Source: a virus (lineage: Duplodnaviria > Heunggongvirae > Uroviricota > Caudoviricetes). From it: a DNA stretch of 38,694 nucleotides. Every line of letters starts with the position of its first letter. Positions within the stretch are counted from its first letter, which is position 1. The stretch is taken from the IMG/VR virus record IMGVR_UViG_2541047880_000004, positions 1-38,694 of that record; one strand, 5' to 3'. A program made the translations under genes and the position numbers. Of this stretch, positions 29,536 to 31,032 are shown in pieces. The notes below the pieces were generated by a model, which ran no database searches, was not told where the DNA came from, and saw nothing but the letters and a program-made list of their open reading frames with translations.

Positions 29536-29667
29536 ATGAGCTACCAAATTCAATACAGAAGTTGCGGTAGATGGGTTTGCGGAAACTCTTTCAAAACAAA
29601 AGAACAGGCTGAGCAATACGCAAAACAAACAGGTCAGGATTATCAAATTGTAAAGACAAGGAGATAA
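29536..29667 (+). CDS. Small hypothetical protein coupled to the PAPS-reductase-like gene
   Basis: 43-aa ORF MSYQIQYRSCGRWVCGNSF...; GAGGGG RBS; stop 1 nt before next ATG; AT-rich. Confidence 0.4.
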   Translation: MSYQIQYRSCGRWVCGNSFKTKEQAEQYAKQTGQDYQIVKTRR

Positions 29668-29668
29668 C

Positions 29669-30526
29669 ATGCCAGGATTTACAAGTAAATTCATACCAAG
29701 AAGAGAATTCAAGCATAATCCAGAAAGACTAAATGTTATTTCTTCCGGTGGTGGGACTCAAAGTAACGCAATAATCTGCTTAGTACATGCTGGCGTTCTT
29801 CCAAAGCCTGACATTATCGTTATGTCAGATACAGAACGTGAGGCAAGTAATGTATTTGAATATCAGAAAAAATATATAGCTCCTATTTGTGAAGATATGG
29901 GTGTTGATTACCTGATTGTTCCTAAAAGTAGATTTGCTACCTACGACATTGATGGGCCTGATCCAGACGTTCCTCTACCTGGATATTTCACAGAATACGA
30001 TGGAAGGGATTCAAAAGGAATGTGCGCTGGAAAGCAACCAGCATTTTGTTCTATAAAGTGGAAAACTGAAGTTATTCAGAGATTTTTAAATGAAAGATAT
30101 GGAGAGAAGTATCTTACAGCAAGAGGAGTGGATAGTTGGATGGGGATAAGCATTGAAGAGGCTAAACGAAGAGCGAAATACCCAACTGGCAAGTGGCAGA
30201 GGCGCTATCCACTTATTGAAATGCTAATGACTAAACAGATGGCAATTCAATGTGTCGAGGATTATGGTCTTCCTACACCACCTGCCTCGCTTTGCTGGAT
30301 GTGCCCTAACAGAGATGATGATCTGTGGCTTTATATGAAAAATAACGTACCATCTGATTTTGAAAGAGCATGTCAGCATGAAAAAGAGATACAAATGAAG
30401 TGGCCTCATTTGTGGCTTACTAAATATGGTGTTCCACTATCTGAGGCACCACTAACACCTAGTGGTGGTAAAAATGCACAAATGGATCTTATACAATTCT
30501 GCGATTCTGGACTGTGCTTCGTTTAA
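29669..30526 (+). CDS. PAPS-reductase-like PP-loop ATP pyrophosphatase family protein
   Basis: 285 aa; PP-loop-like SSGGGTQSNA near N-terminus; conserved-looking cysteines (CWMCP, FCDSGLCF); AT-rich. Confidence 0.75.
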   Translation: MPGFTSKFIPRREFKHNPERLNVISSGGGTQSNAIICLVHAGVLPKPDIIVMSDTEREASNVFEYQKKYIAPICEDMGVDYLIVPKSRFATYDIDGPDPDVPLPGYFTEYDGRDSKGMCAGKQPAFCSIKWKTEVIQRFLNERYGEKYLTARGVDSWMGISIEEAKRRAKYPTGKWQRRYPLIEMLMTKQMAIQCVEDYGLPTPPASLCWMCPNRDDDLWLYMKNNVPSDFERACQHEKEIQMKWPHLWLTKYGVPLSEAPLTPSGGKNAQMDLIQFCDSGLCFV

Positions 30527-30663
30527 GCCGAATAACCCATTAGAGCAGAAATATTCGCTAATTAAAATTGAAAGAATAATTTCATTTATAAACCAGTTCC
30601 CTGAATCTTACCTGTTTTGCGATGGTGATCGGGAAATAGCAGAGATTAAGTTTGAGGAATGAA

Positions 30664-30687
30664 GCCGAATATTCGGCCTTTATTTTT
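30664..30687 (+). terminator. Candidate rho-independent terminator
   Basis: GCCGAATATTCGGC followed by CTTTATTTTT. Confidence 0.5.
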
Positions 30688-30709
30688 AGCATAAACAACA
30701 GAGGTGAAT

Positions 30710-30844
30710 ATGAACGCAGTTGAATTTACAAAATGGATGGCAGAGCAAGATATCACAGGAGCCGACGAAAAGGCTGTGTACTACATGGCTATGCTATGGA
30801 TTCACAAAGCAAAAGAGGCTGCAAATGCTCTTGGAGATAAGTAA
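30710..30844 (+). CDS. Small hypothetical protein
   Basis: 44-aa ORF MNAVEFTKWMAEQDITGADEKAVYYMAMLWIHKAKEAANALGDK; AGAGGTG RBS; TAATG overlap with next ORF. Confidence 0.4.
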   Translation: MNAVEFTKWMAEQDITGADEKAVYYMAMLWIHKAKEAANALGDK

Positions 30845-31032
30845 TGAAAGTAAAAATAACTGCTTCTAATACCAGTTTTGTTAGTGTTGGTGATATTACA
30901 GAAGTAATAACAAACCATGATGGAACACAAGTTATGTGGTCTGATTTTTGTAAAAGATATGAGCGAGTTAGTTGGTGTAAAAACGTATGGGGAGTCGAAT
31001 ACGAAGAATTACCTGAAATGCATGACGAATAA
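30844..31032 (+). CDS. Hypothetical protein
   Basis: 62-aa ORF; translationally coupled to preceding small ORF. Confidence 0.5.
   Translation: MKVKITASNTSFVSVGDITEVITNHDGTQVMWSDFCKRYERVSWCKNVWGVEYEELPEMHDE

Follow-up and report, generated by a model that had tools for sequence, protein, structure and literature searches.

DndC, SspD, and BrxP are phosphoadenosine phosphosulfate (PAPS) reductase-domain proteins that have ATP pyrophosphatase activity and insert sulfur, and they always depend on two partners, a nucleoside triphosphatase (NTPase; DndD, SspC, or BrxC) and a protein for DNA recognition (DndE or SspB/DUF4007) (PMC12914056, PMC12839542). The phage family PHROG 424, to which lambda NinC belongs, has long been noted as having no known function (PMC11437467), and our literature search on NinC function and on phage PAPS-reductase counter-defense returned only statements of unknown function. 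Phage genes labeled "PAPS reductase" or "cysH" are among the auxiliary genes most often reported from viromes. Here we describe a PHROG 424 gene in a 38,694-nucleotide (nt) stretch of virus DNA (IMG/VR record IMGVR_UViG_2541047880_000004, positions 1 to 38,694; called the window below), which is a complete lambdoid, P22-like temperate phage with its pL operon on the + strand. The gene encodes a 285-amino-acid (aa) protein and lies in an island (29536-31032) between N and cIII. Judged by sequence comparison, the protein is a divergent, rarely sampled member of the lambda NinC/PptA family in an unusual slot. The island itself is a mosaic of two independent accessory cassettes, A (29536-30702), which contains the 285-aa gene, and B. 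An initial annotation had seen in the island the best candidate of the window for an undescribed system. Since the protein belongs to PHROG 424, this kind of phage gene is real but already known; what is new is a divergent member directly after N.

Family of the 285-aa protein

The gene at 29669-30526 (+ strand) in cassette A encodes a NinC-like PP-loop ("PAPS reductase-like") protein. Its product matched phrog_424, annotated as phosphoadenosine phosphosulfate reductase, with an E value of 4.8e-35 over residues 11-284; the scores of two other members, lambda NinC and the Vibrio phage protein PptA, were 1.2e-89 and 1e-45. A profile of the 285-aa protein built from 29 homologues was aligned with lambda NinC by hhalign at 97.1% probability (E 5.4e-11, 204 columns). 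These matches support the earlier view of a PAPS reductase-like PP-loop protein, and the SSGGGTQS, CWMCP, and FCDSGLCF(V) motifs are all found in the translation. Among viral models, the best structural match came from Vibrio phage BT-1011, with a protein labeled "PAPS reductase" (E 2.9e-11). The subfamily is large, with 7428 clusters at 50% identity reaching E <= 1e-3.

Standard family models do not capture this subfamily. No Pfam (including PF01507 and PF01171) or NCBIfam model matched the 285-aa protein at E <= 1, and none of 100 close homologues carries a precomputed Pfam domain. Distant subfamily members reach PF01507 at E values of 0.002-0.13 only, and lambda NinC passes it (36.4 bits; cutoff, 22.5). 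The RefSeq label of the protein is "hypothetical" because Pfam and NCBIfam miss the subfamily. A PDB sequence search with the single 285-aa sequence also yielded no match.

Like the 285-aa protein, lambda NinC is phage-encoded, solitary, about 285-290 aa long, and equipped with an N-terminal PP-loop. The motifs DTxxE, C-x4-K, G-I-x-x-(D/E)-E-x-K-R, CxxC, and paired C-terminal cysteines are common to both. However, the two are only ~21% identical, and PF01507, which NinC passes, fails to detect the 285-aa protein; NinC is assigned to PF01507 and to PHROGs 424 and 33262. In lambda, ninC is part of the pR operon (nin region) and has no flanking 43-aa or 46-aa open reading frame (ORF), whereas the 285-aa gene directly follows N in pL. 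No ninC was found in the nin region of the window.

A profile search had been chosen beforehand as the test that might refute the assignment by pointing to an ordinary CysH. In addition to the missing PF01507 and NCBIfam matches, hhalign against E. coli CysH gave 24% probability over 44 N-terminal residues, and the CysH motif ECGLH is not present; the C-terminus reads FCDSGLCFV (subfamily consensus, C-x-x-G-x-C). CysH identity was thus rejected. Unlike CysH, the 285-aa protein is also encoded in a phage context instead of a cys operon. These results bear on the usual annotation of such genes, that of a sulfonucleotide reductase which, as an auxiliary metabolic gene, converts adenosine phosphosulfate (APS) or PAPS to sulfite and boosts sulfur assimilation in infection. 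The host carries cysH already, and the gene is located in an early regulatory operon among accessory genes. We consider this function very unlikely.

Among named defense families, the PADLOC profile closest to the 285-aa protein was that of SspD (E 2.9e-7, residues 121-252 only; 1.8e-14 for NinC), and PADLOC profiles gave no DndC or BrxP match. The resemblance to SspD, DndC, and BrxP consists of the PP-loop fold with conserved cysteines and the partial SspD profile match. These three depend on a cysteine desulfurase such as IscS, and the same is suggested for the 285-aa protein by a PDB entry described below. In contrast to them, neither the 285-aa gene nor its homologues in the 28 lineages surveyed are accompanied by an NTPase or DNA-recognition partner.

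We also considered a tRNA thiolase of the TtuA/TtcA/NcsA type, which would thiolate a host or phage tRNA base and tune translation or blunt anticodon-nuclease defenses. The likeness to these [4Fe-4S] enzymes is at the fold level only. No profile of this group matched, including ATP_bind_3 in Pfam; the loop reads SGGGTQS, with an invariant Gln, instead of SGGxDS; the flanking zinc fingers of TtuA are absent; and the cysteines are ordered C...CxxC rather than CxxC...C. In sequence, the protein is closest to NinC, SspD, and PAPS_reduct, and E. coli has tRNA thiolases already, making this alternative quite unlikely. QueC membership, judged by a PF06508 match together with closest fold similarity, was rejected as well.

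Conserved residues and the PptA-IscS entry

Conservation was computed across 131 diverse representatives of the subfamily. The PP-loop (S25-S32, SSGGGTQS) is followed by D54-T55-x-x-E58, C127-x4-K132, W157-x-G159-x4-E164-x2-R167, C209-x-x-C212-P213, and the tail C278-x4-C283. Residues G27, G29, Q31, D54, T55, E58, K132, E164, and R167 are 90-100% conserved. The values for C127, C209, and C212 are 98-100% (C127 and K132 both reach 100%), and those for the tail cysteines are 88% (C278) and 91% (C283); W157, G159, and P213 are also among the conserved residues. The order of the motifs is that of the PAPS_reduct family.

The AlphaFold model of the protein is confident (predicted local distance difference test [pLDDT] score, 90), the last ~15 residues excepted; the low pLDDT of the tail fits a mobile C-terminal arm. 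The model predicts a PP-loop ATPase fold, Rossmann-like alpha/beta with the SGGxxS loop after strand 1, and Cap9 and QueC are among its fold matches. Presumably, C127, C209, and C212 are placed where iron-sulfur (Fe-S) APS reductases carry their cluster ligands. Compared with the Cys-Cys...CxxC arrangement of these reductases, C127 and C209/C212 stand at the corresponding motifs and the second cysteine of the pair is absent; a tail cysteine could replace it in the putative site.

When the PDB was searched with the family profile, the sole nearby sequence was PptA in entry 21fy (E 0.012). A tblastn search traced PptA to Vibrio phage vB_VhaP_VH-5 (record L094, 4737-5489), where it is the solitary PHROG-424 protein. 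The chains of 21fy are two copies of PptA and two of native E. coli IscS; therefore, one solved structure contains both a PHROG 424 member and the host sulfur donor. A PDB search with IscS (record L098, 4318-5532) located the native 404-aa E. coli protein in two entries only, 1p3w and 21fy. Our literature search found no paper on PptA or on 21fy, and we infer the meaning of the complex from the contents of the entry, not from a publication. The 285-aa protein shares with PptA the PHROG, the C-x4-K, E-E-x-x-R, and CxxC motifs, the C-terminal double cysteine, and the status of a solitary phage gene. Unlike the 285-aa protein, PptA has a degenerate PP-loop (SCGAPS), and its phage is lytic and T7-like. 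Directly 3' of PptA in phage VH-5, we noted an unannotated hydrophobic 100-aa ORF (L094, 5500-5802), for which there is no PDB entry.

Because of the PP-loop site, the putative Cys-ligated metal site, the mobile double-Cys tail, and the IscS-bound relative, we infer an ATP-dependent sulfur transfer. In this mechanism, the PP-loop would bind ATP or another adenine nucleotide, and an oxygen of the substrate, a nucleic acid or nucleotide, would be activated as an adenylate. Residues C127, C209, and C212 would hold an Fe-S or other metal center, as in APS reductase, DndC, and TtuA. The flexible Cys-x4-Cys tail would be charged with a persulfide by IscS, the host cysteine desulfurase, and the sulfur would then be delivered to the activated substrate. 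Such chemistry agrees with that described for DndC, SspD, and BrxP (PMC12914056, PMC12839542). The chemistry of TtuA-type thiolases is comparable. The gene would most likely serve early counter-defense, through modification of phage DNA or of host tRNA. A role in nucleic-acid modification or counter-defense, as proposed initially, is plausible. More specifically, we tentatively favor a stand-alone early enzyme that puts IscS-fed sulfur onto nucleic acid or a nucleotide, likely for counter-defense.

Several points weigh against the favored stand-alone enzyme. The literature searched describes neither an activity nor a metal content, substrate, or phenotype for the 285-aa protein or lambda NinC, and we know of none for PptA. 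The Dnd, Ssp, and BREX-4 systems cannot phosphorothioate DNA without an NTPase and a partner for DNA recognition (PMC12914056), and neither is present in the window or near homologues in 28 lineages. The PP-loop has Gln where the classical SGGxDS has Asp, and the spatial clustering of the cysteines is presumed. The link to PptA is remote (hhalign probability 80%, C-terminal two thirds only), the PptA loop SCGAPS is degenerate, and the presence of IscS and PptA in one entry would also fit inhibition of IscS.

This last point leads to an alternative in which the phage protein is a hijacker or inhibitor: it binds IscS and diverts or blocks sulfur flow, has no product of its own, and would starve Dnd-type phosphorothioation defense, tRNA thiolation, or Fe-S assembly. 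The joint presence of PptA and native E. coli IscS in 21fy, the degenerate PptA loop, and the solitary enzyme gene all speak for it, as does the use of IscS by Dnd systems in E. coli (PMC11662687). However, the PP-loop, DTxxE, K132, E164, and R167 of the subfamily are 90-100% conserved, which argues for catalysis over mere binding. We regard pure IscS targeting as unlikely. Since this member follows N immediately in a phage of E. coli and a relative has been solved with E. coli IscS, the system is tractable, in which the sulfur-metabolism helper of the usual annotation can be weighed against a nucleic-acid-modifying or IscS-targeting counter-defense.

Neighbors of the enzyme gene

We surveyed the neighbors of homologues within +/-4.5 kb in 28 lineages by BLAST clustering and by a census in which 76 flanking genes were assigned to PHROGs. 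In line with the initial annotation, every locus examined was part of a phage or prophage, and most belonged to early, recombination, or replication regions. No partner gene was found in more than four lineages by BLAST clustering, the census showed no conserved partner either, and the enzyme gene is solitary. Clusters present in 3-4 lineages are presumably repressor, integrase, and SSB, a guess from size and position only. In the census, the flanking genes proved to be those of recombination and replication; each DNA methyltransferase family was matched by at most two neighbor genes and DpdA by one. The methyltransferase and DpdA-type neighbors count in favor of the sulfur-transferring enzyme proposed above. 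No NTPase (DndD, SspC, or BrxC) and no DNA-recognition partner (DndE, SspB, or DUF4007) was detected within the surveyed range. In one IMG/VR contig (L089, 6759-9087), a GroEL-like gene (phrog_5725) and an apparently GroES-like gene flank a distant PP-loop homologue.

Another alternative is an accessory enzyme for 7-deazaguanine or another base modification, which would act with a DpdA-type transglycosylase in a QueC- or Cap9-like role. In Serratia prophages, a gene for a DpdA-like DNA/tRNA-guanine transglycosylase (phrog_887, E 5.8e-92; L011/L012, 4244-4999) directly adjoins a 77%-identical homologue. One IMG/VR contig (L048, 7191-7934) has a second such gene, which follows a 51%-identical homologue downstream at a distance of ~400 nt. 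Cap9 and QueC are among the fold matches, as mentioned above. The window contains no DpdA gene, and the 7-deazaguanine papers make no mention of such a PP-loop protein. We see only a slim chance for this role. At the Serratia locus, ParB-like and ParE-like genes were seen upstream.

In the window, the neighbors of the 285-aa gene are N, small ORFs, cIII, erf, and ssb. The pL operon is ordered as follows: cI-like repressor (27532-28248), a 122-aa membrane protein, N (29155-29532, + strand; phrog_271, E 5e-39), the island, cIII (from 31218, + strand; 3' flank of the island), an Erf/Rad52-type recombinase, ssb, and integrase. The 122-aa predicted membrane protein (28267-28635) is encoded directly 3' of the cI-like repressor, in the lambda rex position, and has no PADLOC match. 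The island has a G+C content of 38.4% (window mean, 47.7%), the lowest among all 1497-nt sliding windows (mean, 47.9%; standard deviation, 3.5%), so that its description as a low-GC island holds. No RNA family was found by an Rfam search of 28000-32000. No INPHARED phage has the island at the nucleotide level, and matches were confined to the N and cIII flanks.

A promoter scan of cassette A found nothing above chance, and the idea of a self-promoted moron was dropped. Because of the position 3 nt after N and the lack of a promoter above chance, the 285-aa gene appears to serve an immediate-early lytic function. Lysogenic conversion, considered initially, is unlikely, because no promoter of its own was found above chance and the pL operon is repressed in lysogens. 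The pL promoter would drive both cassettes at an early stage of infection or induction, and N-mediated antitermination would be needed to pass the island terminators.

Two cassettes between N and cIII

The four ORFs first reported (43, 285, 44, and 62 aa) are all present on the + strand between N and cIII, and their coordinates hold. Their proposed translational coupling stands in part. The junctions are tight between N and the 43-aa ORF (gap of 3 nt), between the 43-aa and 285-aa genes (gap of 1 nt), and between the 44-aa and 62-aa ORFs (overlap of 1 nt). However, the end of the 285-aa gene is separated by 177 nt from a GTG at 30704 and by 183 nt from the ATG at 30710, and this gap contains a fifth conserved ORF and a hairpin/T-run terminator. 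Cassette A thus consists of the 43-aa ORF, the enzyme gene, the overlapping 46/62-aa ORF, and the intrinsic terminator; cassette B comprises the 44-aa and 62-aa ORFs. The annotation should be corrected: what was taken for a four-gene operon is a pair of cassettes and, in addition, a gene that was overlooked because it overlaps another is to be entered.

The two cassettes have different distributions. In a megablast search of 5426 complete E. coli genomes, the island split at the terminator: cassette A (29536-30702) was found in 2 genomes, and 30664-31032, corresponding to cassette B, in about 119, all without cassette A. Strain JNE082640 has a TolA-like gene and cIII after cassette A and lacks cassette B. 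In strain CUVET21-147, cassette B is located between an Nmad5 gene (upstream) and a superinfection-exclusion gene (downstream). With Nmad5 and superinfection-exclusion genes present there in other prophages, the N-to-cIII slot is a site at which accessory genes are swapped, in line with the anti-restriction and exclusion genes that the initial annotation placed there for P22 and lambda. The Nmad5-family gene adjoining cassette B in the N-to-cIII slot of the CUVET21-147 prophage (L002, 4386-5009; PF18757, E 1.3e-69) is a putative nucleotide-modification gene.

The terminator that closes cassette A at the A/B junction was detected by a terminator scan at 30664-30687 (+ strand) and consists of the hairpin GCCGAATATTCGGC followed by CTTTATTTTT. 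The homology blocks of the two cassettes overlap at this terminator (query positions 1129-1167). A hairpin plus T-run is present at the same place in loci L017 and L007, with different stem sequences.

The initial annotation had left room for the three small ORFs to form one system with the enzyme. This was not borne out: the 44-aa/62-aa pair is separate and much commoner, and homologues of the 43-aa ORF occur in T7-like phages without the enzyme. The 43-aa ORF and the pair are small early genes independent of the enzyme.

The 43-aa ORF (29536-29667, + strand; phrog_15891, E 4.7e-5) is the first gene of cassette A; it begins 3 nt past the N stop and has the Shine-Dalgarno sequence GGGGTGAG. 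A 56%-identical homologue lies upstream of the enzyme gene in the lineage with an 80%-identical enzyme. Homologues of 51-60% identity were also found in early regions of Autographiviridae without the enzyme; therefore, the 43-aa ORF is an independent small early gene. Its distribution suggests a widespread small host-takeover protein. Homologues were seen among tiny early genes preceding the RNA polymerase gene in Pantoea, Klebsiella, Erwinia, Pectobacterium, and Edwardsiella phages. Pantoea phage Nufs112 (L095, 1857-1988) and Klebsiella phage 6939 (L096, 3504-3629), whose records were examined in detail, are Autographiviridae.

The overlooked ORF of cassette A (30474-30662, + strand, 62 aa) starts with an ATG at 30474, preceded by GGTGGT, and runs in the other (+1) frame across the 3' end and stop codon of the enzyme gene. 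Its conserved core comprises about 44 aa, from 30528. The homologue in L007, the lineage with the 80%-identical enzyme, is 46 aa long and overlaps the enzyme stop codon (ATGA). In comparisons with two other lineages, substitutions at codon positions 1/2/3 numbered 11/5/23 and 4/4/17. The ORF is considered coding because substitutions favor the third codon position and because an identical 62-aa product was annotated by gene callers elsewhere (P0249). One cysteine, in the motif (F/L)C(D/C)GD, is common to the window, L017, and L007. The product had no family match and no phage-database match. Between the window (30522-30537) and L007 (5853-5870), a 1-nt indel changes how the small ORF is placed with respect to the enzyme gene; in the window lineage, the ATG of the L007 type is lost, and the ORF opens at an upstream in-frame ATG within the enzyme gene.

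In all 13 loci examined of the two closest lineages, the 43-aa and 46/62-aa ORFs stand beside the enzyme gene. Both are absent beside homologues of 77-83% identity, and the overlapping ORF was seen in the two closest lineages and nowhere else. The overlapping ORF is the only credible dedicated partner of the enzyme among the small ORFs. It allows a bolder version of the favored sulfur-transferring enzyme, which we hold to be rather doubtful: a PP-loop/Fe-S enzyme would use sulfur from IscS and the Cys-bearing 46/62-aa partner for sulfuration of phage DNA (backbone or base) or host tRNA, as a post-N counter-defense working without NTPase and recognition partners. If such partner-free sulfur installation were true, lambda NinC would also gain a function.

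Cassette B begins with the 44-aa ORF (30710-30844, + strand; ATG at 30710), which matched phrog_24660 over profile positions 1-44 of 44 (E 5.3e-34). Its second gene, the 62-aa ORF (30844-31032, + strand), matched phrog_10407 (E 2.9e-46), and its start overlaps the stop of the 44-aa ORF. The two occur together in the about 119 E. coli genomes mentioned above, without the enzyme.

Between cassette B and cIII, the terminator scan detected two terminator-like hairpins (31128-31195, + strand; stems, 31128-31145 and 31166-31185). The sequence of the first hairpin (31128-31145) encodes the peptide LPSSVRAF, and PSSVRAF recurs in an ORF just 3' of the enzyme homologue in L006. This shared peptide suggests that the same hairpin is present there.

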